Shown here in pieces: positions 37,108 to 56,562 of a stretch of 64,000 nt of DNA (the first letter of the stretch is position 1; every line of letters begins with the position of its first letter). Where the stretch lies: contig CAVSOU010000011.1 in assembly GCA_963729625.1 (NCBI GenBank), forward strand, positions 878,534 to 942,533, given 5' to 3'. Both the position numbers and the translations under genes were made by a program. The notes under the pieces were generated by a model. The model saw only the letters and a list, made by a program, of their open reading frames with translations, was not told the origin of the DNA and did no database searches. This DNA is from an uncultured bacterium (GTDB lineage Bacteria; Chloroflexota; UBA5177; JANWHV01).

Positions 37108-37156
37108 CGGATGGCTTTGCGTCCCCGTCTCACGACGGGTTTGCCCTGTTTCACTG
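37107..37156 (-). ncRNA. 5' half of a GEMM-I (G20) riboswitch, truncated at the IS110 junction
   Basis: Minus strand reads acagGGCAAACCCGTC-GTGA-GACGGGGACGCAAAGCCATCCGG, then runs into the reverse complement of the transposase. Confidence 0.8.
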
Positions 37157-38105: not shown

Positions 38106-39056
38106 ATGCGTGTCCTGGTAACTGGCGGGGCAGGTTTCATCGGCTCCCACATCGTCGATGCGGCGATCGCAGCCGGTCATACGGTGGCGGTGGTAGACAA
38201 CCTCTTGCAGCACGGGGGGGGCCGGCGGGAGAACGTGCATCCTCTGGCACGTTTCTACCAGGTCGACATCAGCCACGGCTCAGCGCTGCGCGCGGTATTC
38301 ACTGAGGAGCAGCCCGAGATCGTCTACCATGAGGCAGCCCAGGCTAGCGTCACGATCTCCGTTGATGACCCAGCGCTGGACGCCCAGATCAATATCCTCG
38401 GGCTGATCAACGTTCTGCAATCCAGCGTGCACGTGGCCGCGCGCAAAGTGATATTTGCTTCGTCTGCTGCTATCTTCGGCTCAGTAGCCAGTCTTCCGGT
38501 GACGCCCGCGACGCCTACACTGCCTGAATCGCCGTACGGGATCTCCAAGATGGTGGCTGAACACTACTTGCGCTTCTGGAAGACGGCCTACGGCCTTGAG
38601 TATACGGCGTTGCGCTACGGCAATGTCTATGGGCCGCGCCAGAATCCCAACGGCGAAGCCGGCGTGATTGCCGTCTTCACGCAGCGCATTCTGGACGGGA
38701 AATCGGTGCGTATCGACGGAGACGGAGAGCAGTCTCGCGACTTCGTGTATGTGGGCGATGTAGCGCGGGCCAATATGCTCGCACTGGAGCATGGCGACGG
38801 CCAGGCGCTGCTTGTGGGCACCGGCGTCCCCACGACGATCAATGCAATCTATCGGCAGCTCACCGTGCTAACCGGGGTAGCAGCACCAATCACCTATGCT
38901 CCCACCCGACCGGGCGACATCGCCCAGGCCTATTTCGACATCACGCAAACAGTGCGGTCTCTTGGATGGCGCCCACAGTTTGACGTCGCCTCTGGCTTGC
39001 GCGGGACTGTCGACTACTTCCGCGCACGGAACGCGCAAGGTGTGACCAGCGTCTAG
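38106..39056 (+). CDS. NAD-dependent UDP-hexose/HexNAc 4-epimerase (GalE/PelX-like)
   Basis: VTGGAGFIGSH, HEAAQASV, FASSAA, SPYGISK, LRYGNVYGPRQ, GEAGVIA, RDFVYVGD, RPGDI. Confidence 0.92.
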   Translation: MRVLVTGGAGFIGSHIVDAAIAAGHTVAVVDNLLQHGGGRRENVHPLARFYQVDISHGSALRAVFTEEQPEIVYHEAAQASVTISVDDPALDAQINILGLINVLQSSVHVAARKVIFASSAAIFGSVASLPVTPATPTLPESPYGISKMVAEHYLRFWKTAYGLEYTALRYGNVYGPRQNPNGEAGVIAVFTQRILDGKSVRIDGDGEQSRDFVYVGDVARANMLALEHGDGQALLVGTGVPTTINAIYRQLTVLTGVAAPITYAPTRPGDIAQAYFDITQTVRSLGWRPQFDVASGLRGTVDYFRARNAQGVTSV

Positions 39057-39387
39057 TGCATCGCTTTCCTAGCCGTCCCCGGCCACCCCGCCGTAGGTGC
39101 GAGCCCGCAGGCGCTCACGTCCGGACCAGTCGCAAGGCGACGGGCGTACCACGTTCGTGAGCTAAAGCCTCCCTCGGATGATGCCCAGCCGGCTTTCGCT
39201 GTTGCCGGAGTTGATCGGGCCCTCTGGCAGCATCCTCACGCTGCTGCCGGAAGCGGTCCAGGCTCGATCGTGCGGGTTCGGCACAGCAAGATCTCCCAAG
39301 CGGGCTGATCTGTTAACAGTGCTCTTGGCTGGCGACTACAGCATTTGCGGGATGGCATCGAGCCTTCTCTGTTCTAATGTGAATACC

Positions 39388-39455
39388 GGATAGCTTTGAC
39401 GCGCAGATAGTACCTGGGCACCTTTGTCTGCGCTGAGCGAGTGGTGCAACCGGCC
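39388..39455 (+). ncRNA. c-di-GMP-II riboswitch
   Basis: GGATAGCTTTGACGCGCAGA-TAGTACC-TGGGCACCT-TTG-TCTGCGCTGAGCGAGTGGTGCAACCGGCC: kink-turn, GCGCAGA/TCTGCGC stem, GCACC/GGTGC pseudoknot, conserved GTGCAACC. Confidence 0.9.
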
Positions 39456-39747
39456 AGATCTCTCTGTAGTGGGGCGATCGAGGCCGTTTTTCATAGTTGA
39501 GCGCCGCGTGGTCCGGCAAGTGGTGTGGTGTGTCAATGAGTGGGCCCGGGCAGGCGCCGAGAATTGAGGTGGTTGCATATCGCCGTTCCCGCGCCTCTCA
39601 GCGACGGCGAACACCGCCGGTAGCGTGTCGGCAACAGGATCGGCGAACAGCACGGCGCTGCCCATGGGTTCCTTCATGCTTCCCAATAGCGCTCGCCGTT
39701 GACGCACGTTCGTCATCCGCGCGCACGACCGAAAGGGCTCGCCAGTG

Positions 39748-41187
39748 ATGGCTACAGAACAGCGACAGGTGGCGCAGGACGCAGTACCACGACCTGCTTT
39801 GCAGTCGGTCGGATTGCTGGAAGCGTTCGTTGGCGTAGCCCTGGTAACGACCGTCGCCATGTTCGTACCTGGGAATTGGGGACTGCTGGGGGTCCAGCCA
39901 CACCCACTGTGGCTGGTGGTGCTGGCCATCGCCATACGCTACGGCACCGCAGCTGGGTATGCCGGAGGAGCATTTGCAGCCTGCGCGTATTGGCTGATGC
40001 TTTGGCTCCAACCAGGTTCAAATGGCCAGCTTCCGGCAGCGTACGAACTCTTGCAGCCGCTACTACTGTTCGTCGGGGGCGCCATTACCAGCGAGCTTGT
40101 GCAGAGCGAGCGCGAGCGCGGCAAGCATGCGGAAGACGATCGCCGCAGGGTAACCGCCGAGCTCCAGGAAGTCACGCAGCGATGTGCGGCTTTGCAGGAG
40201 GTTCATGAGGAGCTGCAAAAGCGGATCGTCGGCCAGACAGCGTCGATCATCAGTCTCTATGAGGTGGCCAAGCAGCTAACCACGCTGGATGCCAAAGCGC
40301 TCTGCAAGTCAACAGTCAACCTCGTCGTGAACTATATCGGAGCGGACGCCGCTTCTCTCTATCTGCGGAATAGCCAGGGTGATCTGGAACTGCAGGCCCG
40401 CGTGCCTCCCGTGGACAGCTTGCGTCGCACCGTTCTCGACCCGAGAAGCGGCCTGGTGAGCCGAGCGCTGCGCGAGGCCCGGGTCGTGACGCTCCACGAG
40501 CAGCTGCCCAGCAGCATGGCGGATTTAGGCGAGGGGGTGCAAGCCGTGATGGCTGGCCCGCTGCTCGACGAGTCCGGGCGCGTGTGCGGCGTTGTTGTGG
40601 TCGAACGCATGCCATTCATGAAGTTCACACCAGCTACTGTTCAGTTATTCGACCTGCTCGTGGACTGGGCCTCGACTGCGCTGCAAAGCGCCGAGAGCCA
40701 TGCGCTGGCGCGCGCGAGAAACATCATGGATGAGGAAACAGGAGTGTACACATCGTCGCACACGCTCGCACTCCTGCGCAAAGAATTCAATCGAAGCCGT
40801 CGTTATCAGCTGCCGCTATCGCTGATCGTGATGCGCATGCGCTCGTTTTCCAATCATCGGTCTGCATCCCGGATTCAGTCGGAGCTGCTCGCGCGAGTAA
40901 AGCCGCATTTGCGGTCGGTCGACGTGTTGGGGCAGGCTGGCGAGCCCGGTACATTAGCCCTGATCCTGCCTCTCACAGAACTTGCCGGCGCACGGCGCGT
41001 CGCGCTGCGGATTCGCGACGATATTCAGGCGAACATCGCAGATGACGACCTTGGTCTTGTCACCGTGCGAACCGGGGTCGCAGCTCTCTCGAACGCGCAC
41101 TCCGAACCGGAAGTCATGCTCGCGAGCGCTCTGGCAGGTATGGACGACGCCGCGCTCGATCTCATCATTGGCGAAGCGGCTTCATGA
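39748..41187 (+). CDS. pelD: PelD-like c-di-GMP receptor (TM + coiled coil + GAF + degenerate GGDEF)
   Basis: HPLWLVVLAIAIRYG TM region, coiled coil, GAF domain, RSVD I-site with no GGDEF. First gene before pelE/F/G. Confidence 0.85.
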   Translation: MATEQRQVAQDAVPRPALQSVGLLEAFVGVALVTTVAMFVPGNWGLLGVQPHPLWLVVLAIAIRYGTAAGYAGGAFAACAYWLMLWLQPGSNGQLPAAYELLQPLLLFVGGAITSELVQSERERGKHAEDDRRRVTAELQEVTQRCAALQEVHEELQKRIVGQTASIISLYEVAKQLTTLDAKALCKSTVNLVVNYIGADAASLYLRNSQGDLELQARVPPVDSLRRTVLDPRSGLVSRALREARVVTLHEQLPSSMADLGEGVQAVMAGPLLDESGRVCGVVVVERMPFMKFTPATVQLFDLLVDWASTALQSAESHALARARNIMDEETGVYTSSHTLALLRKEFNRSRRYQLPLSLIVMRMRSFSNHRSASRIQSELLARVKPHLRSVDVLGQAGEPGTLALILPLTELAGARRVALRIRDDIQANIADDDLGLVTVRTGVAALSNAHSEPEVMLASALAGMDDAALDLIIGEAAS

Positions 41188-41212
41188 TTACACCCCGTCA
41201 AGGGGACGAACG

Positions 41213-42403
41213 ATGACTGGATGGAGCCATATGCAACGACTCCCGCGCCAACTGTGTGGTGCAGCGCTTGCGGTGTCCGGGCTTGGCGCGGATTGTGTCG
41301 CGGCAGTGTGGGTGCTGGATACCGCGGACCCGCGGAGTGCGCTGCTTCATATGGCAGCAGTGGTCGTGTGGATCGCCGGTGTGAGAATGCTCGCCGGAGA
41401 GCGCCACGATCTGGAATCACACGCGGACCGTCGCCGGCGGATAAGGTCTGCAAACGGGCGCCCCGCCGCGCGGCCTCGACGACTGTATCTACCCAGCTTC
41501 ATCTGGACGCGCTTAACAGAATCCTGGACTCCCTCTGACAATACTGCCGCGGGGCGCCTGGTAGCCGAGGACATGGACGGCTGGACTGTAGTCGCCCTGA
41601 TCGTCGGACTGGTTCCTTTTCCAGCGGTCGGACCGCTCGCGCTGAGCATCGCACGCGCCGCGGTCTGGCTGCTCCGATTGGTCCCCAACCCGCAAGACGC
41701 GCGGCGCTCCCAGACGGAGCGCGGCCTAGAGATGCCTCACGCCCGTATGGTCTCTATCCAGCGGGAACTGGAGGTGCAGCCCATCGTCGATATCCTCCAT
41801 GGGTCCGACCGCGCGCTCAAGCGCGCGGCCATACATGCTCTCGCCCGTCAACCCAGCGGTGAAGGCGTGCAATGGCTCAGGGATCTCCTCGTCGATTCAG
41901 ATGCCGACCTGCGTGACGCTGCGTCATTGGCCCTATTTCGCCTTGAGGTCGACTTTGAACGGGAATTGCGCCGGGCTGGACGACAGGAAAGCGCGACGCC
42001 ACCCGCCGCGCTGGCCAGTCTTTACATCCGCTATGCTCGCAGTGGACTGCTCGACGACATATCCGGTGCGCTCTATCTCCACAAAGCGTGCGACGCCCTG
42101 CAGCAGGCAATTGCCGCAGAGCCTGATTGCACCAGACTTCAGTTCCAGCTCGCATCACTGCAAAGCGAACTTGGCATGGAGGCAGAAGCGTGTGAGACGC
42201 TCGAGTGCGGACTCGGTTCGGGACAAGTCGACGCGCAGAGCTGCCTGGAAGGTATGGATATTGCCTTCCGCAATGGACGATGGGAGCAGCTTCTGCAGCT
42301 TGCACAGAGGGCACGGCTCGTGTTCGACGATGACCCTGAGCCCAAGGCCCTGATCCAGTGGTGGACCGAAGCGCACTGGGACGTGGTTGGGAGCGGCGCA
42401 TGA
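41213..42403 (+). CDS. pelE: PelE-like membrane protein with HEAT/TPR repeats
   Basis: TM helices with P.VGP, HEAT-like KRAAIHAL...LVDSDADLR..A, YARSGLLD, TPR-like C-terminus. Lies between pelD and pelF. Confidence 0.72.
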   Translation: MTGWSHMQRLPRQLCGAALAVSGLGADCVAAVWVLDTADPRSALLHMAAVVVWIAGVRMLAGERHDLESHADRRRRIRSANGRPAARPRRLYLPSFIWTRLTESWTPSDNTAAGRLVAEDMDGWTVVALIVGLVPFPAVGPLALSIARAAVWLLRLVPNPQDARRSQTERGLEMPHARMVSIQRELEVQPIVDILHGSDRALKRAAIHALARQPSGEGVQWLRDLLVDSDADLRDAASLALFRLEVDFERELRRAGRQESATPPAALASLYIRYARSGLLDDISGALYLHKACDALQQAIAAEPDCTRLQFQLASLQSELGMEAEACETLECGLGSGQVDAQSCLEGMDIAFRNGRWEQLLQLAQRARLVFDDDPEPKALIQWWTEAHWDVVGSGA

Positions 42404-43905
42404 TAGCCGACGTCTGCGTGCTTGTCGAAGGCACCTATCCATACGTGGCGGGGGGCGTCTCGAGCTGGATTCATACGCTGATCCGCAACCTCCCCCAGTT
42501 CACCTTCAGCGTTGTCTATCTTGGTTCTACACCCGAGCAGCGAGGAGAGCGACACTACGAGTTACCGGAAAACGTGATCGACTTTCGCGAGCTGTTTATT
42601 CATGACACGAAGTGGACGATTGCTCGGCGCGCACCACGGTATGACCCGGAGCTTTGGACAGCGCTACGCGACTTTCATCTTACCGGGGCTACTGGGAAGC
42701 CAAGCAGCTATGCGACCATGTGCCGCCTGCTTTGCGAGAATATGCCAGGCACCATCTCGGCCTTCGATCTCTTCAGTGCCAAGCAGAGCTGGGACATGAT
42801 CGTCAAGATGTATGCCCTGCGCGCAGCTGACTTCCCATTCATGGACTACTTTTGGACCTTTCGTCTCACGCATCTCCCGATTCTGTATCTGCTTGAAGCT
42901 GAGATCCCCAAAGCTCGGGTCTACCACACGCTGAGCGCCGGCTATAATGCGCTCCTTGGCGCGTTCGCCAAGATTCGTTCCGGTGCCCCCTTGCTCATGA
43001 CCGAACACGGGATTTACACGCGGGAACGCGATATTGAGATCGCGCAACTCGACTGGATCCGAAGCCCTCACCAGAGTGAGCACATCGTCTCGGCCACGCC
43101 AGGCTACTTCCAGCGTTGGTGGGGAGAGATGTTCCGCTACATCACGCATCTCTCCTACGAACTATCGGATCGGGTGATCTCGATCACCGCCGCAAACCAG
43201 CGCTTTCAGCTCCAGAACGGGGCCGAACCTGAAAAGATGCTGGTAATTCCGAACGGCATCGATGTTGAGCACTTGCGCGGTGTGCGCACGGCATCGCGTG
43301 CCGACACAGATCGCTTCACCATTGGGTTTGTCGGACGGGTCGTAGGAATAAAGGACGTCAAGACTTTCATTCGCGCGATCAAGATCGCAAGCACTGTGAT
43401 CCCGAATCTGCTGGCATGGATAGTTGGACCGGAAGGCGAGGAGCCTGACTATGCTGCGCAGTGCCATGAATTGGTCGAAACACTTGGTCTCACGGAGTTG
43501 ATCGCGTTCACCGGTCCTCAGGATGTTCGCGAGTACTACAGTCAGATGGACGTGCTAGTTCTGACTAGTCTGAGCGAGGCCCAGCCGCTCGTGATCCTGG
43601 AGGCAAATTGCGCGGGCGTGCCTGCAATCGCGCCAGACGTTGGCGCTTGCCGCGAGCTACTGTACGGGATTACCCCGGATGACCAGGCACTCGGTCCAAG
43701 TGGTGTGATCACGCCTCCCGCACACCCGCGTGCAACAGCCGACGCACTGGTCCAACTCTGGCGCGATGACGCATTGCGAGCGCGGATGTCGACGGCCGGG
43801 GCTGAACGGGTGCGACGGTACTATGGGCAGGAAAGCCTGTTCGCCGCATATGGCGATCTCTATCAGCAGTACATTGACATGTCACCAGTGGAAGCAGAAC
43901 GGTAG
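42400..43905 (+). CDS. pelF: GT4 glycosyltransferase PelF
   Basis: EGTYPYVAGGVSSW (DUF3492), TEHGIYTRER, IPNGID, GRVVGIKDVKTFI, LTSLSEAQPLVILEA, DVGACRELL. Confidence 0.95.
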   Translation: MIADVCVLVEGTYPYVAGGVSSWIHTLIRNLPQFTFSVVYLGSTPEQRGERHYELPENVIDFRELFIHDTKWTIARRAPRYDPELWTALRDFHLTGATGKPSSYATMCRLLCENMPGTISAFDLFSAKQSWDMIVKMYALRAADFPFMDYFWTFRLTHLPILYLLEAEIPKARVYHTLSAGYNALLGAFAKIRSGAPLLMTEHGIYTRERDIEIAQLDWIRSPHQSEHIVSATPGYFQRWWGEMFRYITHLSYELSDRVISITAANQRFQLQNGAEPEKMLVIPNGIDVEHLRGVRTASRADTDRFTIGFVGRVVGIKDVKTFIRAIKIASTVIPNLLAWIVGPEGEEPDYAAQCHELVETLGLTELIAFTGPQDVREYYSQMDVLVLTSLSEAQPLVILEANCAGVPAIAPDVGACRELLYGITPDDQALGPSGVITPPAHPRATADALVQLWRDDALRARMSTAGAERVRRYYGQESLFAAYGDLYQQYIDMSPVEAER

Positions 43906-43910
43906 CGCGT

Positions 43911-45287
43911 ATGGCTGGCATTGGCTTGCGATTGCATCGCTTGGTCGACCGGGGGACGTATTTCCAGGCGGCGGGCGCCTATGCGGCGTCCGCCATTATC
44001 TCCGCGGGGCCCTGGCTATCCGCGGTTTTCTGGGTCGGACTTCTCGGCAGCGTCGCCTCCACTTTCTTGAATCCGACAGATCGCGCGCTGATGCTTACGA
44101 CGATCAGCTACGTGTTCTGCGCGAGCCTGTTGGTAACCGGCGGGCCTCAATTGCTCGTGACCCGGTTCCTGTCGGATCGCCTGTATGTAGATGATGAGGA
44201 GGCATTGGCGCCAACCTGCACTGGGGTGCTACTTGCGGCGATCCCCCTGCTGGTCATTGCATTGCCGTTCCTTGCGTTCGCGCCATTCGATCTTCGCTAC
44301 CGGTTGCTTGCCACGAGCCTGTTCATCTCCGTCTCGCTGGTCTGGATGCTCGTCGTCTTCTTATCCGCAACTCGCGACTTCGTCCGCATAGTGGTGGTGT
44401 TTCTGTCTACGTATGGCCTGAGCGCGCTCGCGGCACTCGGGCTTGGACACATATTTGGCCTTCTGGGCTGCCTGTATGGCTTCACGCTCGGGCAACTCGT
44501 GTGCCTGTGTCTGCTTGTCGCGCATGTATATCTGGAGTTTCCACCGTCAAGAGGAATTCAGCTCGGCTTCCTGAGTTACGGAAGGCGGTACTGGGATCTG
44601 CTGCTGATCGGGCTCTGCCAGTCGATTGGCCTGTGGATGGATAACATACTTTTCTGGTTTTCCAAGAACGGGATCGTTATTGCGCACTTCTACCATGTTT
44701 TTCCGGCGTACGACCTGGCGAAGCTCGTCGGCTACCTGTCTACCATTCCCGCTGCCGCGGTGTTCCTCGTCCGGCTGGAGACCACTTTCTACCAGCATTA
44801 CGCGAAGTTCTACCGCCTGGTCACCGAAAAGGGTGTTTTGTCGGACATCGTCCTCGCCCGAAAGGGTATGGAGAAAGCGGCGCAATCTACGGTTCTGACC
44901 ATTGTGAAGATTCAGGTCATCGTGGATCTATTTCTGATTGTCTTCGCCAGAGATATCGTGGAGAAGCTTGGTCTGCCTGATAGCCGGATATCGATTGTGC
45001 GCATTCTAGCAATAGGGACGAGCACGCAGTTCGTGCTCATGGTCGGCCTGTTGATGCTCCTGTATCTCGACGCGCGCCGCCCCGCGCTCAAAGTCACGCT
45101 GGTATTCGCCATCAGCAGCCCCATACTCACGTTGCTCACGCTGCGCCTGGGCTCGCCATTCTACGGCTGCGGCTACCTCGTCGCGGCGCTGGTCTCCGCG
45201 ATACTGGCGCTTGTCGCCCTCCGTAATCGGCTCCACAACCTGGAGTTCGTGACGTTCATGCTGCAGCCCATGGAACCCGACGAATGA
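43911..45287 (+). CDS. pelG: Exopolysaccharide Pel transporter PelG
   Basis: MAGIGLRL, IISAGPWL, TRFLSDRLY, GLWMD...FW, YD, ETTFY..Y..FY, LLYLD, YGCGY; about 12 TM helices. Confidence 0.95.
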   Translation: MAGIGLRLHRLVDRGTYFQAAGAYAASAIISAGPWLSAVFWVGLLGSVASTFLNPTDRALMLTTISYVFCASLLVTGGPQLLVTRFLSDRLYVDDEEALAPTCTGVLLAAIPLLVIALPFLAFAPFDLRYRLLATSLFISVSLVWMLVVFLSATRDFVRIVVVFLSTYGLSALAALGLGHIFGLLGCLYGFTLGQLVCLCLLVAHVYLEFPPSRGIQLGFLSYGRRYWDLLLIGLCQSIGLWMDNILFWFSKNGIVIAHFYHVFPAYDLAKLVGYLSTIPAAAVFLVRLETTFYQHYAKFYRLVTEKGVLSDIVLARKGMEKAAQSTVLTIVKIQVIVDLFLIVFARDIVEKLGLPDSRISIVRILAIGTSTQFVLMVGLLMLLYLDARRPALKVTLVFAISSPILTLLTLRLGSPFYGCGYLVAALVSAILALVALRNRLHNLEFVTFMLQPMEPDE

Positions 45288-45321
45288 CGCGAAGGAACAT
45301 GACGGACTGGGGGGACACATA

Positions 45322-46653
45322 ATGCGCCTGCCACGTTGGCTCGTTCTCGGAATGTGCATCAAGCGCTGGATCGTGATGCTAACCCTCGGAATCGCGCTAA
45401 TCAGTCTCAGCGCTGGTTACTTCTTGCGCGCCCTGTACAGTGTCGATGTCAGGTTCCCCAGGTGGGTTTACTACCTTACCCTCCAGTTCCTCAGCCGAGA
45501 GGCCCGCGGCGTGCTGTTCCTTGCCCTGGGGGCCGCGCTCACCGTCATTGGCCTCCTGAGCCTCAGCCGCACCCTGATCATGGCGCTCCTTCCGCGTCAC
45601 GGCGCGAATGTCATAGACATCCTCCACTACCGCCTGATGCTCAAGCGCGGTCCGAGAGTGGTTGTAATCGGAGGCGGCACCGGCCTGTCCGTGGTACTCA
45701 CGGGACTCAAGGAGTACACGGGAAATCTGTCGGCCATCGTGACGGTTGCCGATGATGGGGGCAGTTCGGGCCGCCTTCGGCGAGATATGGGCATCTTGCC
45801 GCCCGGCGACTTTCGGCAGTGCCTCGCCGCGTTGGCCGACGTCGAACCCCTGATGACCAAGCTACTGCACTATCGTTTCCATGAAGGATCGGGCTTGGAG
45901 GGACACAGCCTGGGAAACCTCATCGTCGCCGCGATGACCGATATCAGCGGCAGCTTTGAGCAAGGGCTACGAGAAATGGGGCGCGTCCTCGCGATAAGAG
46001 GGCAGATCCTGCCTTCCACGCTTGAAGACATCGTGCTGGTCGCCGAACTGGGCGACAATTCATACGTCATCGGCGAGTCGAATATGCATGAGGATCACGC
46101 ATCGACATCCGGCCTGCCCGTAGATCGCGCGCCAATCGCTCGGGTATTCATCAAACCTGCTCATGCTGCCGCCTATCCAGGGGCAGTACGGGCAATTCTG
46201 GATGCCGACATTGTGGTTCTGGGGCCTGGCAGCCTCTATACAAGCATTCTGCCAAACCTGCTGGTGGAAGATATTCGCCGCGCGCTATCCGCTACCACCG
46301 CGTGTAAGGTCTTTGCATGTAATGTCGCCACGGAGCCGGGAGAGACAGATAGCTACGCGATCGAAGATTTCGCGGCGGCAATGACGCGGCATACTGGTGA
46401 GCAGATGTTCGATGCCATGATCGTCAACACGCGCGTGGACGCCAAGCGCCCACCTGACTGGCACGGTGAGATCGTGCAAAGCAGGACGGCCTGCCGAATA
46501 GGAACCCGTATTATCGCCGCCGATGTGGTGGATCAGAATAATGCAGCGCGCCACGATCCGGCGAAACTGGCGCGCGCGATCATGCGCACGTGGGCAGAAT
46601 CCACGCGCGTGAACGCTATCCTGCCCGGCAGGAATTCGGCACGCTCGCGATAG
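45322..46653 (+). CDS. yvcK: YvcK/GlmR (CofD-like, UDP-GlcNAc-binding) protein with N-terminal TM helices
   Basis: IGGGTGLS, VTVADDGGSSGRLR, PPGD, GHSLGNL, GES, LGPGSLYTSILPNL, GETD, RHD. Starts 34 bp after pelG. Confidence 0.92.
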   Translation: MRLPRWLVLGMCIKRWIVMLTLGIALISLSAGYFLRALYSVDVRFPRWVYYLTLQFLSREARGVLFLALGAALTVIGLLSLSRTLIMALLPRHGANVIDILHYRLMLKRGPRVVVIGGGTGLSVVLTGLKEYTGNLSAIVTVADDGGSSGRLRRDMGILPPGDFRQCLAALADVEPLMTKLLHYRFHEGSGLEGHSLGNLIVAAMTDISGSFEQGLREMGRVLAIRGQILPSTLEDIVLVAELGDNSYVIGESNMHEDHASTSGLPVDRAPIARVFIKPAHAAAYPGAVRAILDADIVVLGPGSLYTSILPNLLVEDIRRALSATTACKVFACNVATEPGETDSYAIEDFAAAMTRHTGEQMFDAMIVNTRVDAKRPPDWHGEIVQSRTACRIGTRIIAADVVDQNNAARHDPAKLARAIMRTWAESTRVNAILPGRNSARSR

Positions 46654-47073: not shown

Positions 47074-48618
47074 GTGACAATTCGTAGACTTGGCGTGCCA
47101 CTTCTCACCCTCTGTCTTGCGTTGCCACTTTCGAGCATCGCGCGGCCAGAGGGCTCGGGCCAGGTCGTTTCGGCTCAGACCTCGTCGTCTGTGACCCTGT
47201 CCCCTGTCTCCATTACCAACACGGAAGGCACGACGGGCGGTCAGCCGGTCTCGGCGCTTGGCGTAGAAGATCAGTCTGGTACTGCGAACGACTGGAACAA
47301 GTACGTCGAATTCGACGGGCTTTACACCGGTTATCGAACCTATGACTTGAGCACCAGTGTTGCGCCATCCAGCGTCAGCGTCATTGCCGTAAGCGTGAAC
47401 TATCAAGGACCGGCCAAGGTAAACCAGGACTGGACATGGAGCATCTACGACTGGCTTCAATCGAAGTGGGTGGCGGTCGGAGACAATGGCGCGGCGCCCG
47501 ATTGGGGTGCGTGGACATTGCTCAGGTTCAGTGCGACAGGAGCCCTGGCCAATTACGTCAACCCAACGAGCGGCCAAATACGTGTCCAGGTGTCCTCGAA
47601 CAACGCATCCGACAATATGGACCTGGACTACGAGTCCGTATCCGTGACTTACGGCAGCCAACCACAGCCAACCTCGACGAGCACCTCGATAGCGGCCACC
47701 GCGACACGCACGCCCACGCGCGGAACATCCACCAACACGCCGGTGCCGCCAACCGCGACACGCACGCCCACGCGCGGAACATCCACCAACACGCCGGTGC
47801 TGCCAACCGCGACACGCACGCCCACGCGCGCGACATCCACGAACACGCCGGTGCCGCCAACCGCGACACAGGCCCCGGCTCCAGGCAGCAGCCTATGGCG
47901 ACCGACTCCCGGCACGACGTGGTTCTGGGAGATCGGTGCAACGCCCAACCTGAGCAGCCTCCACGCGGTCCAAGCGTATGACATCGACGGATTCGACAAC
48001 CCGGCCTCGACCGTCGCCACACTCCACAGTCACGGCATCAGAGCGATTTGCTACATGGATGGCGGGACCTACGAGAACTGGCGGCCCGACGCTGGGAGCT
48101 TCCCGTCCGGCCTGCTTGGAAGCTCGAATGGATGGCCAGGTGAGAACTGGCTGGATGTGCGCCCAAGCGGCGCCTACTACGGGACCCTGAAGTCGATCAT
48201 GCAAAGCCGGGCGCAGGACTGCAAGAGCCACGGTTTCGATGCGATCGAGTGGGACAACGTGGACGGGTATACGAATTCGACAGGATTTCCCATCACCGCG
48301 GCCGACCAGATAGCCTACAACACATTCCTCGCGGGCGCGGCGCACGCGGTCGGGCTGTCCGTGGCACTGAAGAACGATACCGATCAGGTTTCGACTCTTC
48401 AACCAAGGTTCGATTTCGGCATCGACGAGGAGTGCTTCCTGTACTCGGAGTGCAGTTCCGAGACGCCGTTCATTAACGCCAACAAGGCGGTCCTTGAGGT
48501 CGAGTACCAGGAAGACGGCATGACCACGTCCAAGTTCTGTCCGCAGGCCAATGCCATGCGCTTCAGCTCGGCGCTGGCAACCCTGAACCTGGATGGTCCC
48601 TGGACACCCTGCTGGTAG
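47074..48618 (+). CDS. Secreted endo-alpha-1,4-polygalactosaminidase (GH114) with an N-terminal Trp-rich module and Pro/Thr linker
   Basis: Signal peptide; YDIDGFD, ICYMDGGTYENWRPD, WPGENWLD, GFDAIEWDNVDGY, LKND, EEC, VEY. Confidence 0.9.
   Translation: MTIRRLGVPLLTLCLALPLSSIARPEGSGQVVSAQTSSSVTLSPVSITNTEGTTGGQPVSALGVEDQSGTANDWNKYVEFDGLYTGYRTYDLSTSVAPSSVSVIAVSVNYQGPAKVNQDWTWSIYDWLQSKWVAVGDNGAAPDWGAWTLLRFSATGALANYVNPTSGQIRVQVSSNNASDNMDLDYESVSVTYGSQPQPTSTSTSIAATATRTPTRGTSTNTPVPPTATRTPTRGTSTNTPVLPTATRTPTRATSTNTPVPPTATQAPAPGSSLWRPTPGTTWFWEIGATPNLSSLHAVQAYDIDGFDNPASTVATLHSHGIRAICYMDGGTYENWRPDAGSFPSGLLGSSNGWPGENWLDVRPSGAYYGTLKSIMQSRAQDCKSHGFDAIEWDNVDGYTNSTGFPITAADQIAYNTFLAGAAHAVGLSVALKNDTDQVSTLQPRFDFGIDEECFLYSECSSETPFINANKAVLEVEYQEDGMTTSKFCPQANAMRFSSALATLNLDGPWTPCW
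47698..47868 (+). repeat. 54-bp coding tandem repeat (TATRTPTRGTSTNTPVPP x3)
   Basis: Direct inspection. Confidence 0.88.
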
Positions 48619-48877: not shown

Positions 48878-48910
48878 GTATGTAGCGTTGCGCTGCTCTG
48901 GGCTTGCCGG

Positions 48911-50396
48911 CTACCGGCAAGCCACGCGGTATGAGTTCAGACTATTCTTCTTCTTCATCGCGTAGAAGCCCATACTGTTTGCCTGCGCACAGAACTTGCT
49001 GGTACTGAGCGAGTATTCGACGTCGTATACCGGCTTACCCGCCGCGATGAACAATTGGTAGTTCGTGCACTCCTTGTACTGGAAGCACTGCTCAGCGAGC
49101 TCCCAATCGAAGATCGACACCAGATCAGGCGCCTGCTCGAAGTCGTTCTTGAGCGCGATGGACATGCCCCGCGAATGTGCCTGTCCGGCCAGCCAGGTGT
49201 TGAACGTCAGCTGGTCCTGATAGGTCAGGGTGAACCCGGTCGTATTCACGAAGCCATTCACGTTGTCGGCCTCGACCGCGTCGAAGCCTTTCTGCTTGCA
49301 CAGGTCGAACCTGGCACTGAGTATCGGTTCCAACACCGATAGCTGCCGAATGTCCAGCCACTTCTCGTCGGTGTAGGGCGGCTCGAAACTTGCGCCCTTC
49401 AGACTATCCGGGTAGCTGGAAGCGTCGGGCCGCCAGTTCTCCCACGTCCCTGCGTCGAGGTAACATGCGACCTTTCGACCCTGAGCGTGCAACGATGCAA
49501 CCACACTCGCATCATTATCAAAGAGATCGATGTCGTAGAACTGCACGTTGATCGTCTGATCGATCGGTGTTGCCAGCTGCCAGTCGAAGGTTGTGTCCAC
49601 GCCAGGTAGCCAATAACCCACAGCCGGCGTCGACGTGCTCGTCGGGCACCGTGGCCGTAGACGTCGGCGTGCTCGTCGGCACCGTGGCCGTAGACGTCGG
49701 CGTGCTCGTCGGCACCGTGGCCGTAGACGTCGGCGTGCTCGTCGGCACCGTGGCCGTAGACGTCGGCGTGCTCGTCGGCACCGTGGCCGTAGACGTCGGC
49801 GTGCTCGTCGGCACCGTGGCCGTAGACGTCGGCGTGCTCGTCGGCACCGTGGCCGTAGACGTCGGCGTGCTCGTCGGCACCGTGGCCGTAGACGTCGGCG
49901 TGCTCGTCGGGCTTGCCGTCCGCGTCACAGTTGCTGTTGCACGCGACGTGGGCGTACTTGACGCTGCCGGCGTGCGCGTCACGGTCGAGGTTAGGCGCGG
50001 CGTGAGCGTTGCCGTCGGCCCGGTGCCGCCGGTGACAGTGAAGATGGTCTGGGCCGTCACGGACCCAACTGTCACCGACACCGTATGTGGGCCATTGGCG
50101 GCCGATGGAACGGTCTGTGTGTCACTGATGGCTCCGCTGCTACTGGTATAGTCGCTGTCAAAGGAGCTGCCGTCCCAATAGACCTGAACGTCTGTAGAGG
50201 CCGGAAATCCAGAGCCAACGATCGTGAAGTCACCGCCCGGCGATCCCGAGCTGGGCTGCACGGACAGCGACGGCGCCGCCAGGGCGGTGCTGCTCGAAAG
50301 ATTGCCGCCCGGCACCCCCGGAACACCGAGCAGCAGGACAACTGACAAGCATACCGGGAGTAGTCGGCTCTGCGTCAGCTTCGCGCGGCCTGTCAT
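48911..50396 (-). CDS. Secreted GH114 polygalactosaminidase with an N-terminal Ig-like domain and Pro/Thr linker (frameshift near 49645)
   Basis: ORF 49518..50474 (signal, Ig-like, PT repeats) joins ORF 48911..49621 (WQL, YDIDLFD, CYLDAGTWENWRPD, GFDAVEADNV, LKND, EQC, VEY). The extra G lies in the last repeat unit. Confidence 0.87.
49635..49910 (-). repeat. 33-bp coding tandem repeat (PTSTATVPTST x about 8)
   Basis: gtgctcgtcggcaccgtggccgtagacgtcggc repeated head to tail without spacers. Confidence 0.93.
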
Positions 50397-50476
50397 GGTG
50401 ACCTCTGCCTTCGTTTGCCTTTCTGAGTGAAACGTTCCCACAGTCCCAAACGGGTCACGAACCGCCGCCATCAACT

Positions 50477-50511
50477 GCAGCGGGGGACGTCCGAAGTGGG
50501 TCCCCCGCTGC
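50477..50511 (-). terminator. Hairpin after the gene at 50521..50979
   Basis: GCAGCGGGGGAC...GTCCCCCGCTGC 12-bp stem. Confidence 0.6.
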
Positions 50512-50520
50512 TCGGCTGGA

Positions 50521-50979
50521 CTACTTCGCCGTAATAGTGACGCTGGCCGTGGCCACCTTGTAGAGCACGTAGTCGTTCCGGGCCAGGGCGACGATGATCT
50601 TATGCGTACCGCGCCCGCCGATGAGCGCCGGTGCGAGATTGAGTGAGACGGTCGTTGCGGTCAACGAGGCCAGCCAGCTGTGGTTGAGATCCTTCTTCGC
50701 ATAGGCATCGTTGGGGATCCTGTCCACGTAGATCTGGAAGTGGCCGTGACCGGCGATGCTGGCCTTGCCCATATTTGTGATGTCGAGCGTGATGCCCGAG
50801 GCTTGCAGGTGGAACGTGACTATCGTGTGCTTGCCGGAAATGGTGGTGGGGCTGGCCGAGACAATCTTCACGCTCATCGCCGGTTTGGTGGCGGCCAGAG
50901 CAGCGTGACCGGTGTGCGGAAACAGCGCGCCGGCCATGAGAACAGTCGACGCCAGAACCGAGGTGATGAGACGCTTCAT
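50521..50979 (-). CDS. Secreted small beta-sandwich protein (DUF4399/DUF6130-like)
   Basis: AAGGAG RBS, signal peptide, GHGHFQIYVD motif, G.HKI.V.LA.ND. Confidence 0.6.
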   Translation of the reverse strand: MKRLITSVLASTVLMAGALFPHTGHAALAATKPAMSVKIVSASPTTISGKHTIVTFHLQASGITLDITNMGKASIAGHGHFQIYVDRIPNDAYAKKDLNHSWLASLTATTVSLNLAPALIGGRGTHKIIVALARNDYVLYKVATASVTITAK

Positions 50980-51243
50980 GCTGAACTCCTTGTTCGTCTT
51001 TGCGAATCCTGCGGACAAAGGGGCGAGGCCGTCAGCTCCTGAGGCCTGCCAAATCATTCGGGCAGAGGGACCAGTCCATCACGGCCGATCTTCTGACTCG
51101 AGCCGCCGCGCCGGTGAGACACCGGCCAGTGCGCTGCGCGATCCCGAGGCACGACCGCATGGGCGGGTCCCGCCACCCCTTTCCAAGGCCTCAGTGTATA
51201 GGCTGTCTCCTTCCACTCATATAGGAAATTGTTGCAGGCTGCG

Positions 51244-54200
51244 TCACGAGGTGACGGTCAGCGTGCCGTTGACGTACTTGATGTTGTAGTTCGCGTCGAC
51301 CGCGCCACTGGGCACGATGGGATAGCTTCCCGGCTGCGTCGAGCTTCCGGCGCCCCACTGCACGGCAAACGCGGGCAGCGTGGTAAGCGACCTGGACGTA
51401 TCGCCGTTGACGAAACCGCTGAAGCTGGCGGAGAAAGCCGGCACGACACCGCCTTGGACCATGCTCTGCTATTGGCAGTGATCGTAAGGCGGGCCGGCAC
51501 AACCGTCAGCGTGGCGTTGATGTAGACGATCTTGTAGTTGTTCGTGCGAAGGTACCGCGCCGCTAAACGTGATCGGGAATGAGCCTACCGGACTTTGCGC
51601 GTGGCGCTGGTCGTGCCGGTGGGCTGTTGCCAACGAATCGCCATTGACGAGCCCGCTAACCGTGAAGGTCAGGCTCGGCATGGCGGCGCCGTACATTTTG
51701 GATTTGTTCGTGGCCGTGATGGTGATAGTGGCCGGCGTCACCGTCAGGGTGCCGCTCACATAGGTGATCGCGTAGTCGCTGCTGTCGGTGACGCCAATGT
51801 TTGACGGGGCGTGACCGAGTAATTGCCAACCGGGCAATTAGCGGTCGTCGGGTATAGCTTGCGTGCTGCACGCATCGGTGTACGTCGGACCTGTTGGTGA
51901 TGGTGTCGCCGGCCGTCAGGCCGCTGATCGTGTAGCTGAAGGCCGGGTTGCTGGTGCCGTAGACCTTGGACGTGCTGTTGGCTGTGATCTTCAGCGTTGC
52001 CTGGACGACGGCGAGCGTGCCCGTGCGATACGCGATCGTGTAGCTCGCGGCGTCGCTTCCGGATACGGATGCGCCGCTGGCCGTAACATTGTACGAACCC
52101 ACGGGACTGTTGGTTACCGCCGTTGTGCTGAAGCTGACTCCGGATATGGTGTCAGACTTGTTGGCCAGGCCGCTGGCGGTGTAGGTGAAAGTCGGATTGG
52201 CCGTCCCATACACCTTGGCCTTATTGTCGACGCTGATGACCAGTGTGGCCTTTGCAATCGAGAACGACTGCTTCACCGGCGTCGCCGCGCTGTAGTTCCC
52301 GTTGCCGGCCTGCGAAGCCGTGACCGTGCACGAGCCCGCGCCGGTGAGGTGCACCGTGCTCGTGCCCGCGGCGACCGAGCAGGCGCCTGTGGCGCTGAAG
52401 CTCACCGCGAGACCGGAGCTGGCCGTGCCGGCAATCGTGTAGTCCGCGGCGCCATAGGTCTGATTGCTCAGAGCGGGGAAGCTGATGGTCTGACTGGCTG
52501 CGGTGATGGTCAGCAAGGCCGAGCCGGCGCTGGCAACGTAGCTGGCGTCGCCGGCGAAAGTCGCGCCCACTCCGGCCGGATAGCTGCTCGCCGCAATGGT
52601 GCCGAGGCTTACGCTGGTGAGCGTCGCCATTCCGGTGGCGTTCGTCGTCGCCGGTCCGACCGACTGGCCATTCAGCGTGAAGCTGACCGACCGACCGGAC
52701 ACGCTGCCGTGCCCGCGAGCAGCGTGGCCTGCAGGGTCGCCGTGCCGCCATAGGTGCCGGAAGCAGGGGCGACAGTCAGCGTCGTAGCGCTCGCGAGGAT
52801 GTCGAACGTGTTGCTCGTCGCGCCGGCCAGCGTCCCCGAGCTCGCGGTCAGCGTGTAGCCGGTGCCCGCGGCGTCGATAGACAGATCGCTGAAGGCAGCG
52901 ATGCCGCCGGCAGCGGCCTGGGTTGCCGTGCCTCCCAGGTGACCACTGCTCGGATTGGATCCTATGGCTAAGGTCACCGGGGCGGTACTCGTGGTCGGGT
53001 TGCCGAATTGGTCAAGGATCCTGACCGTCACGCCGGGCTGGATGGTGGCGCCCACGAGGACGGACGCCGGTTGCTGTACGAATGCAAGAGCGGCGTCCAG
53101 GCCCGGCGTGATGTTGAACGCATTGCTTGTGGCGCTTGCCAGCAGTCCGGAGCTCGCGACGAGCGTGTAGCCGTTGCCCATTTTATCGATGGATACGCCG
53201 CTGAAGGTAGCGGTGCCGGCGACCGCGGCCTGACTTGCCGTGGTCAAGAGCTGGCCGTCGCCCGGATTGCTGCCGATAGCCAGGCTCACGACGGCCGAGC
53301 TGGTGGTGAGGTTGCCAAGGGCATCCTCGATCTGCACGGTGACCACCGGCGAGATGCCGACGCCCGCCTGTGCCGATGTGGGCTGCTGCCCGAACACGAG
53401 CATCGCGTCCGCGCCCGGCGTGATGTCGAACAAGGTGCTCGGCAGACTGGTGAGTGAACCGGAGCTGGCGACGAGTGTGTAGCCCCTACCCACCTTATTG
53501 ATGGACAGGTCGCCGAAGCTCACCAAGCCGTTCACGGCGGCAGCACTCAGCGTGCCGCCGAGCGTGCCGCTGCCCGCGTTGGTACCGATGGCGAGCGTGA
53601 CCGTCGCCGTGCTCGCGGTGGCATTGCCGTAGGCGTCCTCGATCTGCACGGTGACCGGCGGCGAGATGGGGGCGCCCGCGACGGCAGATGTTGGTCCTTG
53701 TACGAAGATCAGCTTGCTATCCGGGCCGGGACCGACGGTAAAGACGGCACTGGTCCCGGCCGTCAACGTGTCGCCGCTCGTGGCCGAGGCAACGAGCGAG
53801 ACACCGCTCTCGGCCTTGGTGTAGACGATCCCGGTGAGCGTGACGGAGCTGGTCCCGGCCGCAATCGTGCCGGTGACCGTTCCGGTGAGGATACCGGTGC
53901 CGCTACCGAGGCTCATCGCCACGTTGGTGGCGTTGGTCACGATCGCCCCGTTGCCGGTCGCATCCATCGCCTGCACGGTCGCCGTGAACGGCACACCGGC
54001 GGAGATGGTGCTGCTCATCGACGTGATTGCCAGGTTCGTATCCTGGCCAGCCAATGGCAGGGTGACCTGCTGTCCGGCGCCCAGCGCGACGCTGGCGATG
54101 TACTGACCGCCGTAGAACTCGGCGCCCGCCATGTCCAGTCCGGTGACCGGTATCGTGGCGCCGTTGACCGTGTTGAGAGTGATGGAGGTCCATGCGCCCG

Positions 54201-56562
54201 AGGTGCTTCGGGTGATGGTGCCGGTCGCGCCCGAGGCGTTGTACGCCATGCGCGACGCCATGTCCATGCCGAGCTGGTCCATAGTCGGGCTGACGAGGGG
54301 CAGATTGAAGTAGCTGCTGTACTTGCTGATAACGCTCCCCATGAGGTCGCTGAAGACCGAGTTGGTCCCGCTATACGCGCGCATGTTGGCGACGTGGAAC
54401 ATCAGCGGGTCCATGTCGCCCCGCAGCACGTAGCCGAGGATGGTGTTGGTTTCCCGGTTCACCAGGTCTGTGTAGCTGGTCACGTGGCCGGGGGCGCCCG
54501 ATGGGTAGATGCAGTTGTCCTCATTCAGCCACTCAGTATTGTTCGTGACGTTGTAGTAGAGGTTCACCGGATGGCGCGGGATGATCAGGATCGGGGCCAG
54601 GCCGGCAGGAACGAACGAGTCGTACTGCCCCGCGTTCGGTGTCGGGTTGTTGTAGTCGGTAGGATCGGAGTTGTACGGCACGGTGGTCGCGCCGGTGTGC
54701 GAGCTATCGCCGTCCACGTAGCGTATGCCGAAGTTGTCGGCCTGGGTCAGGAAGCCCGGGTTGGTGTGGCCGGAATACTCGGGGTTGACCATGTCGTTTG
54801 TCGTGTAGTTGGGTAGGGTCAGCGTCATAGCAACGGAGTTGTTGAGCGTCAGCTCCTGCAGGTAGTCGGCGCTCATCGCCTGCTGGCTGAGCGTGCCGGT
54901 GGGTGTGTTTGGCGTGGTGAACGTAATGTCGTTCAGCGCGTCCGAATTGGGCGGCTGGACCGTCCAGGTGCCCAGGTTCGCATGGTCGTACGTGTGGCTT
55001 ATCCAGTTGAAATACGACTTGTCATTTGCCGTGGCGGCAGCCAGGGTGTCCGGCGTCGTGCCTCGCCAGTCCGTGGGGTTCACATACCCCACCCCGTTGA
55101 AGGCCAGGCTGACGCCGAGGTTGATGGCCACGCCGGTCTTGTGGGCGTTCAGCCAGGTCACGAAGCTGTCCAGGTCGGAGCCGGTCATGCGGTAGGTTGC
55201 GCCGGTCGTCGTGTTGACAGTGCCGTCCGGGTTGAACTGGCAGCTTCCGCCCGGTAGGTTCCACTCGTCGTCGTCGATGAAGAAGTCGTCGAGCTGCGGG
55301 CTCAGGTAGACGTGGCGGTCGCCCAGGAACGTGCCCTGCGTCACCCAGTTCACCATGCCGTAGGAGAGCACGAGGTTGTGCGTGAGGAACGGGTTGCTGT
55401 TGAAGGTCAGACTCAGCGTCTGTGCCCCGGAGGCGTCGCTGCTGATGAGGGCGAGCGCGTTGCCCGAGCCGTCCACGAGCAGCGGCGTGGTGCCGGTGAG
55501 CGACTGGGCTTGAAGGATCCAGGTGCTGCCGCTTGGCTCACCGATCACCAGTTGCGAAGCAGCGTTGGCGTAGCTGAAGACCTGCTGCCCGGCGGTGGTG
55601 TAGGTGGTTGTCACCGGGGTACTGCCCGAGGCGTTGGGCACATTAAAGCCGAGCGTTGAGGACGGCCAGGTGGCGTACCAGACGACCTCGCGCAGGCCGA
55701 AGTCGTCCACGTAGGTCGTGAGATTGGCCCAGTCCAGTGCGCTCAACGCGCTAACCCAGCTGGGGTTGTAGTAGCCGAGGACGTCGGTCTCCAGGATCAC
55801 ACCGTCGTAGGGGGACTGCGTGGTGTTGGCGGCCAGGTTCGCGAGGAAGTTTGTCTCGGGCACTCCAGGGCCGAAGTCCATGTAGTTGTTGCCGGAGTTG
55901 CTGGGGTCGTAGTGCAGGCCGGCCGTTGGGCTGATGGTCGACGAGCTGTACAGAGTTTGCGCGGTGGCCACGTACAGGTCGTACGGCGTGCCGAGGTCGT
56001 CCAGCGTCTGGGCGATCGCCGGCAAGTCCGGCTGCGTGTTGTTGGCTGACAGGACCAGCAGCCTCATGCCGAGCGACTGGGGGGCGGTAAGCGTGGTGAG
56101 CGGCTTAATCAGCGCCCTGAAACCTAGCCCGGGTGGGACGGTCGGGCGCGCGAGCGGCGGGTACGGATGGTCGGGCTTGGTGCCGGGCGGCACCGGCCCC
56201 ACTTCGAGCGTATCGCCCGACAGCGCGTTCCGCGTCGCGGCGGCGGTGGCCGGCGCGGTGCTGGTAGCGGTAGGGGCCGGCGCTGTCGCGGTATCGGCGG
56301 GCACCACCGGCGTGCTGGTGGCCGAGTCAGCCGGCATGGTCGCCGTGCCGGTTGGCGCGGGCGTCGCGGTGTCGGTCGGGACATCCGTCGCTGTGCCGGT
56401 AACCTGGCCGCCGTCATCGCCGGACGTCTGGGTCGTCTGCTGGTCCTGGTTGGCCGAGGCCATGGCGCTCACAGAAGGTGTCGATGCGCGGACGAGCGCC
56501 GTCGAGAGGACCAACAGGATGAGAGCTATGAGCCTTACGCCTTGACGCGGCACTCTGTCCAT
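51244..56562 (-). CDS. Giant secreted Agd3/CE18-like polysaccharide deacetylase with Ig-like and MBG repeats (C-terminus frameshifted)
   Basis: Signal peptide. Agd3-like motifs LGTPYD, YDGVIL, R.VYLSPQLDDFF, WISHTYDH, IIPRHP.NLYYN, DPLMFHVANMR. Then LIFVQGP/FGQQP Ig-like repeats and MBG-like repeats (K.KVYG..NP.FTY, Y..GTLTV) across ORFs 52672, 51656, 51469 and 51244. Confidence 0.8.

Follow-up and report, generated by a model that had tools for sequence, protein, structure and literature searches.

Homologues of Agd3, the CE18 deacetylase of the Aspergillus fumigatus galactosaminogalactan (GAG) cluster, were reported in 45 bacterial species by Bamford et al. (2020, PMC7229062). According to the passages of that paper at hand, the bacterial operons containing Agd3 all encode a cytoplasmic glycosyltransferase (GT) and a multispan membrane protein, frequently together with a GH114 hydrolase, those of Gram-negative organisms hold Pel outer-membrane components, and the idea that the GAG cluster came from bacteria is discussed along with an evolutionary link between Pel and GAG; as far as these passages show, the operons are known from bioinformatics. 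The neighbourhoods listed in its Supplementary Data 2 include Polaromonas ('GH114, B, D, E, F, G, Agd3, Agd3'), Burkholderia stagnalis and B. pyrrocinia ('Agd3, D, E, F, G'), a Stigmatella entry with A, B, D, E, F and G, and the actinobacterium Rubrobacter xylanophilus ('PelD, GTB, PelG, Agd3, GH135'). Because of these neighbourhoods, a PelA-less Pel-type synthase beside Agd3 has to be considered as already recorded, a Gram-positive-type organism included. Chloroflexi are absent from the two spreadsheet supplements of the same paper, and no paper naming both Agd3 and Chloroflexi was returned by our literature search. The present analysis is devoted to a stretch of 64,000 nucleotides of an uncultured Chloroflexota bacterium (contig CAVSOU010000011.1 of assembly GCA_963729625.1), hereafter called the window, which carries a Chloroflexota example of this class of bacterial Agd3-containing exopolysaccharide operons described bioinformatically in 2020.

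The deacetylases assigned to Pel systems in the available passages of the literature belong to other families, PelA to CE21 (PMC12022489) and PelA-DA to CE26/CBM114 (PMC13254593). In the monoderm operon pelDEA(DA)FG, PelA-DA is described between pelE and pelF (Whitfield et al. 2020, PMC7112168), and Gram-positive loci in which only pelF and pelG were detected are also mentioned (PMC7112194). CE18 is a third distinct deacetylase family, after CE21 and CE26, on this kind of polymer.

The window is chromosomal, as indicated by dnaA (19862-21388) and ftsZ (12390-13592), and has a G+C content of about 63%. Among the 120 best DnaA relatives listed, which reach 86% identity, all 11 with an organism name belong to Chloroflexota or an allied lineage (Chloroflexia, Anaerolineae, Limnocylindria and Nitrolancea). 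The window genes collected in Table 1 probably constitute a chromosomal, PelA-less Pel-type exopolysaccharide locus controlled by cyclic di-GMP (c-di-GMP). A first-pass annotation, made on the same DNA from the sequence alone, had proposed the order epimerase-pelD-pelE-pelF-pelG-yvcK with two secreted GH114 genes and a giant Agd3-like gene; all of these were recovered in place using Pfam and NCBIfam. That picture had to be amended in four respects: the second GH114 gene is split by a frame change, the giant gene really extends over about 51244-56562, the accessory cluster runs on to at least 61990, and a c-di-GMP-II riboswitch is present ahead of pelD.

Table 1. Positions of the features of the Pel-type locus in the window, followed by the fused GT genes found in related CE18 loci (L numbers, see text)
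Feature	Sequence	Positions	Strand	Properties
NAD-dependent sugar-nucleotide 4-epimerase, GalE-like	window	38106-39056	+	PF01370 205 bits (Pfam)
c-di-GMP-II riboswitch aptamer	window	39379-39464	+	Rfam RF01786 58.0 bits, gathering score 53.5
Terminator-like hairpin with U5 run	window	39451-39492	+	found by folding; 5' arm overlaps the conserved 3' end of the aptamer
PelD-like c-di-GMP receptor (predicted)	window	39745-41187	+	membrane N-terminus, GAF 44.6 bits, degenerate GGDEF
PelE-like membrane/helical-repeat protein	window	41213-42403	+	HEAT_2 28.8 bits, cut-off 27.7
PelF, GT4 glycosyltransferase with DUF3492 N-domain	window	42358-43905	+	NF038011 equivalog 500.1 bits, cut-off 100
PelG, polytopic membrane exporter component	window	43911-45287	+	PF16933 407.5 bits, whole profile (1-452)
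YvcK/CofD-related UDP-GlcNAc-binding protein	window	45322-46653	+	TIGR01826 331.9 bits, cut-off 196
Secreted GH114a	window	47074-48618	+	signal peptide, GH114_assoc PF14741 114 bits, PT linker, GH114 PF03537 246 bits
GH114b	window	48911-50474	-	two overlapping open reading frames (49518-50474: signal peptide, Ig-like domain NF058592, 11-aa PT repeat; 48911-49621: GH114 domain); PF03537 258 bits
Giant secreted CE18 deacetylase	window	51244-56562	-	main reading frame 52672-56562, 1296 aa; Agd3_CE 65.9 bits, cut-off 27.6
Secreted non-catalytic protein	window	56715-59883	-	two reading frames; signal peptide, N-domain of ~270 aa, PT linker of ~340 aa, three GH114_assoc (PF14741)
Secreted Ig/MBG-repeat protein	window	59897-61990	-	MBG_2 134 bits and Ig-like matches
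Fused GT gene	L007	4996-8709		
Fused GT gene	L010	14976-18518		
Fused GT gene	L015	9936-13151		
Fused GT gene	L016	1850-5176		
Fused GT gene	L075	11822-14962		

PelF and PelG belong to their respective families, the former also matching DUF3492 (PF11997) with 270 bits in Pfam. The open reading frame (ORF) of pelE is open from position 40982, its likely start being the ATG at 41213 past the pelD stop; the pelE and pelF ORFs overlap with no gene between them; pelG starts 6 nt past the pelF stop; and yvcK, whose product has an N-terminal extension of about 112 aa, begins 35 nt downstream of pelG. No dedicated PelE profile was matched by the PelE-like protein, its HEAT_2 match is over the cut-off and a TPR_19 match is under the Pfam cut-off. 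In tblastn, it displays a weak similarity to the gene located between pelD and pelF in two of the CE18 loci surveyed below, which are designated by L numbers (99 bits and 30% identity in L039, 77 bits in L048). The best PDB matches of PelD are the Pseudomonas aeruginosa PelD structures (4EUV, E 6e-5), and the protein is 39% identical to the PelD of L039. Its RxxD motif reads RSVD and stands five residues ahead of the degenerate GGDEF position, the arginine (R390) being invariant in five of five aligned PelD proteins and the complete RxxD present in four of them. We take this motif to correspond to the c-di-GMP I-site of P. aeruginosa PelD, and c-di-GMP may be bound there. The PelD of L048 (4556-5644) has 362 aa and no GGDEF, its alignment stopping just past the conserved arginine; it recalls the streptococcal PelD without GGDEF described in passages of PMC7112168.

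The epimerase has GalE as its best NCBIfam match, with 170 bits, under the cut-off of 262, and is proposed as the supplier of UDP-GalNAc (GalNAc, N-acetylgalactosamine). It is probably expressed from a separate transcript, because it is positioned upstream of the riboswitch. YvcK may tie precursor supply to polymer synthesis; a homologue also adjoins CE18 in L007 (1431-2504), a Chloroflexia metagenome-assembled genome (MAG).

With Pfam, 125 ORFs of the window were scanned. The PelB barrel, PelC, a PF01522 (CE4-type) deacetylase and a second Agd3_CE domain were all without a match, and Agd3_CE was the only deacetylase family observed. The PelB profile PF24604, silent on the window ORFs, detected PelB in L009 and L054. 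PelA (GH166 and CE21) and PelA-DA (CE26) were likewise not found among the 125 ORFs by Pfam, which may hold no CE26 or CE21 model. These results, together with the overlap of pelE and pelF, agree with the earlier observation that the window lacks pelA, pelB and pelC and that no deacetylase lies between pelE and pelF. As far as is known, Chloroflexota are bounded by a single membrane, and the absence of PelB and PelC fits such an envelope.

The giant minus-strand gene, of about 1770 codons in all, encodes a signal peptide, a PT linker, a CBM87-like domain (about residues 150-400), the CE18 domain (about 400-790), a beta-rich domain, then Ig and MBG repeats. The Agd3_CE match covers residues 514-776 of the 1296-aa ORF. 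The whole 1296-aa protein, submitted as a single sequence, had no match in the PDB. A profile (A1) was built from the deacetylase region of the window and 16 relatives; compared to the PDB, it gave a single match, Agd3 (6NWZ, E 1.4e-70), over residues 22-681 of the 684 of the chain, spanning the three Agd3 domains. The proposal that the domain at 54.2-56.1 kb is a CE18 was thereby borne out. Residues D425, D426, H523, H527, R663, M721 and H723 occupy invariant columns of A1 and align with the Agd3 motifs CM1-CM4 (Asp-Asp, HxxxH, Arg and Met-x-His). Since passages of PMC7229062 give D377, D378, H510, H514, R613, M666 and H668 as experimentally essential in Agd3, the catalytic residues of the window enzyme are intact. 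The protein search did not return the window enzyme itself; the closest relative obtained there is 51% identical, none of the CE18 loci kept from the genome scan exceeds 41%, and identity to eukaryote Agd3-family sequences amounts to 27% (P0079, alignment A1) or 24% (BLASTP).

The first secreted hydrolase, GH114a, matches the Ega3 structure 6OJ1 in the PDB with an E value of 7.7e-43. Its residues D394 and E452 align with D189 and E247 of Ega3, given as the nucleophile and acid-base pair in a passage of PMC12054363, the spacing being 58 residues in both proteins; GH114a is a predicted Ega3-like endo-alpha-1,4-galactosaminidase. The second, GH114b, is 46% identical to GH114a and retains the Asp/Glu pair. 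Because no bacterial GH114 had yet been made in soluble form according to the same source (PMC12054363), GH114a and the CE18 catalytic region are possible candidates for expression. The GH114_assoc module was observed in three settings: ahead of the hydrolase domain in GH114a, in three copies in the neighbouring non-catalytic protein, and fused C-terminally to CE18 in a relative, P0005. By this distribution, it behaves like a candidate carbohydrate-binding module for the Pel-type polymer. The Ig/MBG-repeat protein at the end of the cluster may be part of the Pel system.

The leader of pelD contains a c-di-GMP-II aptamer that covers the full Rfam model (1-84, E 2.8e-10) and is located between the epimerase gene and pelD, 281 nt upstream of the latter; its outer stem is poorly paired in the Rfam alignment. 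The hairpin that follows was revealed by folding and was not listed by a simple terminator scan, and its energy compared to shuffled sequences is unexceptional (z about 0). Its layout suggests a putative expression platform of an ON switch in which the ligand would prevent termination. In L016, a Chloroflexales MAG, the same aptamer (69.6 bits) is followed by a hairpin and a U7 run ahead of a fused GT gene. Among the papers listed by literature searches combining riboswitch and pel terms, and in the passages retrieved, none described a pel operon under the control of a riboswitch.

The conservation of this arrangement was evaluated by scanning one genome per bacterial species with profile A1. 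CE18 relatives were confirmed in at least 601 of at least 612 matched stretches, and 78 loci were kept. Neighbours were counted within 10 kb of CE18 using tblastn with the window proteins, a PelF being considered as close from 300 bits upwards. A close PelF was observed in 13 of the 78 loci (PelG being present as well in 11 of these) and in 4 of the 27 loci displaying at least 8 kb on both sides; the corresponding figures for a more distant PelF-like GT4 are 14 and 8. Epimerases similar to that of the window were found near CE18 in 9 of the 78 loci. The loci with a close PelF span Chloroflexota, Myxococcota, Pseudomonadota and Eisenbacteria. Four loci (L048, L039, L054 and L009; 62 ORFs) were scanned with Pfam. 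In L048, a Ktedonobacteraceae MAG, pelD-pelE-pelF-pelG-CE18-GH114 are contiguous on one strand. In L039, a Chloroflexia MAG, pelD, pelE and pelF are divergent from CE18, with a Spherulin4 gene alongside and PelG detected by tblastn only. The order is PelB-D-E-F-G-CE18-CE18-GH114 in L054 (Polaromonas), and GH114-PelB-D-E-F-G in L009 (Massilia), where CE18, detected by tblastn only, is found downstream. No other deacetylase family was matched in the 62 ORFs. The claim that CE18 and pelFG occur together in other genomes therefore holds, and a functional link between CE18 and pelDEFG is supported by this conserved synteny.

The relationships of the deacetylases were examined by maximum likelihood in a quick tree built on 81 CE18 regions, the partial sequences of L016 and L045 having been set aside. 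The window sequence groups with three relatives (SH-aLRT 100), and with the pelDEFG-linked L039, L001 and two actinomycete sequences (SH-aLRT 96). Pel linkage is scattered across the tree, at least six changes being forced. The CE18 sequences of two further loci, L036 and L035, are placed within a Verrucomicrobiota clade, beside Limisphaerales/Verrucomicrobiales MAGs. These two loci come from MAGs labelled Klebsiella pneumoniae and Akkermansia muciniphila, respectively, and an error of binning or labelling is suspected, above all for Klebsiella.

The mechanism proposed for the locus can be briefly summarized as follows. The epimerase would provide UDP-GalNAc. Upon a rise in c-di-GMP, the class-II riboswitch in the pelD leader would be bound and the overlapping terminator blocked, allowing transcription of pelD-pelE-pelF-pelG and possibly yvcK, and c-di-GMP at the RxxD site of PelD would activate the membrane complex. 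GalNAc would then be polymerised by PelF and the chain moved over the single membrane by PelD, PelE and PelG. Outside the cell, the giant CE18 enzyme would perform a partial de-N-acetylation, rendering the chain cationic and adhesive, and the deacetylated stretches would be trimmed by the two Ega3-like GH114 enzymes. Attachment to the polymer, or anchoring of the enzymes at the cell surface, is the probable role of the GH114_assoc, Ig and MBG modules. Judging from the epimerase, the GH114 homologues and CE18, the polymer would be an alpha-1,4-GalNAc chain that is deacetylated in part.

A number of observations weigh against this reading of the locus. The GGDEF match of PelD is sub-threshold (20.3 bits for a Pfam cut-off of 23.8), as expected for a degenerate domain, and the CBM87 match of the window is under its cut-off (24.3 versus 27.6 bits), relatives passing at 60.9 and 64.9 bits. 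Rfam scanning covered the window and 24 of the 78 CE18 loci; the aptamer was found upstream of a synthase gene in two of these 25 sources, and the 12 other close-PelF loci that were scanned gave no match. Since only L016 was positive among the 24 loci, the riboswitch is not general to CE18 or Pel loci. The CE18 and GH114 genes are located on the opposite strand, 1.4-7 kb from pelG-yvcK, so that their co-regulation is putative. Neither type of PelF-like gene was detected in the DNA examined at 51 of the 78 loci, nor within 10 kb at 15 of the 27 well-flanked ones, and CE18 is therefore not obligately tied to Pel. The minus-strand CE18/GH114/GH114_assoc cluster could accordingly be independent of pelDEFG and represent a secreted toolkit directed against foreign GalNAc-rich polymers (fungal GAG or the Pel of neighbours) or another surface glycan. 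Besides its strand and the unlinked loci, such a toolkit would account for the multi-domain secreted proteins with Ig/MBG modules that the cluster possesses, and a precedent is provided by L010 (Anaerolineae MAG), where a 940-aa ORF near the CE18 genes (1865-4687) joins a subtilase, a CAP domain and GH114 and resembles a secreted attack enzyme. It is nevertheless unlikely, given the same-strand pelDEFG-CE18-GH114 operon of L048, the similar adjacency in L054, L009 and L039, the presence of a close PelF by CE18 over four phyla, and the lack of an alternative deacetylase in the window for a type of polymer needing one. Another possibility is that the operon relies on a canonical monoderm PelA-DA (CE26) from a different part of the genome, CE18 being redundant or acting on another substrate. 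The check for PelA-DA covered the 64-kb window, and PelA and Agd3 homologues do occur together in Stigmatella, Nitrosomonas and Nitrosospira (Supplementary Data 2, PMC7229062). This is very unlikely all the same: the position taken by PelA-DA in the monoderm loci described in passages of PMC7112168 is closed in the window, and no deacetylase other than CE18 was matched by Pfam within 10 kb in L048 and L039.

The state of the accessory genes must also be taken into account, as frame changes interrupt GH114b, the GH114_assoc gene and the CE18 gene in its C-terminal part, a further point against the proposed locus. In GH114b, the change sits at the end of the PT repeat and parts the GH114 domain from the half containing the signal peptide, the Ig-like domain and the PT repeat. 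The CE18 gene displays at least four changes in its C-terminal MBG repeats (51244-52702), which are scattered over several frames, and the GH114_assoc gene one near 57.8 kb; the uninterrupted form of the split GH114_assoc module is seen at the C-terminus of P0005. If these changes were real, part of the accessory set would be inactive, and the accessory genes could be decaying pseudogenes in a strain making no polymer, an unmodified polymer, or one processed by another deacetylase. The loss of the signal peptide from the GH114b catalytic half would be in keeping with such decay, which is, however, quite unlikely. No in-frame stop was found inside the catalytic parts, and within the 1296-aa ORF the signal peptide and the CBM87 and CE18 domains are preserved, as is every catalytic residue. 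All frame changes fall in repetitive genes (PT, Ig/MBG, RHS) and reach beyond the polysaccharide cluster, because an unrelated RHS/YD-shell gene entering from the window start (2-2297, plus strand) is divided between two frames at about 0.4 kb and an MBG-repeat gene at 62140-64000 (minus strand) is broken over several frames. As every break lies in repetitive coding DNA, a pattern expected of assembly or polishing errors, and as pelD-G and the housekeeping genes look intact, such errors are probably a better explanation than decay. Two other suspected frame changes, at the acetate kinase and panC/S58 junctions, were checked and judged intact. The c-di-GMP-controlled Pel-type locus is retained as the preferred reading.

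Additional elements related to c-di-GMP were observed upstream of the pel genes. A c-di-GMP-I-GGC aptamer (31379-31453, plus strand, 61.4 bits for a gathering score of 59) is located upstream of a tandem pair of almost identical ORFs (31698-33170 and 33904-35334, plus strand), the second of which has a signal peptide, the first being devoid of an in-frame N-terminal part. These ORFs were considered as a hidden deacetylase and rejected, no match being obtained in Pfam, NCBIfam or the PDB; their language-model neighbours point, as a lead only, to GH5-like TIM-barrel hydrolases. A shortened c-di-GMP-I-type aptamer match is present on the minus strand at 37098-37155 (RF01051, 38.4 bits for a gathering score of 35; 39.4 bits against the GGC variant, under its score of 59), with 3 nt in place of one stem and no obvious gene downstream on the same strand. 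Some 10 kb ahead of the pel genes, an HTH-PAS(x3)-GGDEF-EAL protein of 1024 aa is encoded (26416-29490, plus strand), which could synthesise or degrade the c-di-GMP to which PelD and the riboswitches would respond. It is possible, and is put forward here with some reserve, that in this Chloroflexota lineage Pel is doubly gated by c-di-GMP through the riboswitch ON switch and PelD, that the CE18 and GH114 enzymes are large and surface-tethered, and that GH114_assoc is a new module binding cationic galactosamine/GalNAc polymer. Should double gating be true, the 31-40 kb region, with its three aptamer matches and the PAS-GGDEF-EAL protein, would be a dedicated c-di-GMP biofilm regulon island.

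A second class of loci (L007, L010, L015, L016 and L075) became apparent in the survey, in which CE18 is accompanied by a fused DUF3492-GT4/membrane protein, a UDP-sugar dehydrogenase, an epimerase and GH114. It resembles the window by CE18, GH114 (40-48% identical to those of the window) and the epimerase, is also encountered in Chloroflexota, and shares in L016 the c-di-GMP-II riboswitch and terminator placed before the GT gene. It differs in that tblastn revealed neither PelD nor PelE. The fused GT is 25-31% identical to the window PelF and its C-terminal region measures 540-650 aa in all five loci. BLASTP revealed no likeness of this membrane domain to PelG; among three proteins submitted to Pfam, one sub-threshold PelG match was returned (L010, 21 bits), the C-terminal regions of L016 and L075 having no match. 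As one long protein, the fused GT is reminiscent of the single fungal synthase Gtb3.

The locus can finally be compared with the systems described previously. The A. fumigatus GAG cluster (Uge3, Gtb3, Sph3, Ega3 and Agd3) shares with it an epimerase, a CE18 enzyme with CM1-CM4, a GH114 enzyme with the same catalytic pair and, presumably, a partly deacetylated alpha-1,4-GalNAc-rich substrate. The synthase of the window is split into PelF and PelG, with PelD/PelE and c-di-GMP control, whereas that of GAG is a single membrane glycosyltransferase; GH135 (Sph3) is not found in the window, L039 having a Spherulin4 gene, and identity to the eukaryote Agd3-family sequences is low. The first-pass annotation had seen here a bacterial synthase combined with fungal-type maturation enzymes. 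The combination of a PelD/E/F/G core with CE18 and GH114, and no PelA-type gene nearby, stands; the term fungal-type does not, in view of the bacterial CE18 relatives retrieved in our scan and of the predominantly bacterial membership of the GAG-active hydrolase families stated in passages of PMC12054363. The pairing of CE18 with Pel over several phyla lends support to the published view of the GAG-type enzymes as primarily bacterial.

The Bacillus cereus operon pelDEA(DA)FG, as presented in passages of PMC7112168, resembles the window locus in lacking PelB and PelC, in its PelD made of GAF and degenerate GGDEF, in the order of PelE, PelF and PelG, and in possessing an extracellular three-domain deacetylase together with a separate hydrolase. 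The window differs by its closed pelE-pelF junction, by a deacetylase that is CE18 and not CE26, by hydrolases that are Ega3-like GH114 and not PelA-H-like, and by the riboswitch ahead of pelD.

The closest likeness is to the operons of Bamford et al. (2020), where a Pel-type synthase core also adjoins a three-domain CE18 and GH114 and the PelA deacetylase is not in the locus; the Polaromonas- and Burkholderia-type loci of these authors were found again in our survey as L054 and L013. The architecture, first taken as undescribed, is covered by the listing of Agd3 beside PelD/E/F/G in their Supplementary Data 2, and the Pel/GAG evolutionary link, first put forward as a possibility, had already been raised in the discussion passages of the same paper. 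What is currently understood of Pel and GAG biology is left unchanged. The window differs from these operons by its Chloroflexota host, by the presence of PelD, PelE, PelF and PelG together without PelB or PelC, and by its deacetylase of about 1770 codons with Ig/MBG repeats, its GH114_assoc proteins and its leader c-di-GMP-II riboswitch. The Chloroflexota host, the riboswitch and terminator upstream of pelD, which constitute a small addition to c-di-GMP control of exopolysaccharides, and the very large multidomain deacetylase are new here, and the CE18 group of Pel-type systems gains with the window a Chloroflexota case in which the PelDEFG core is complete.

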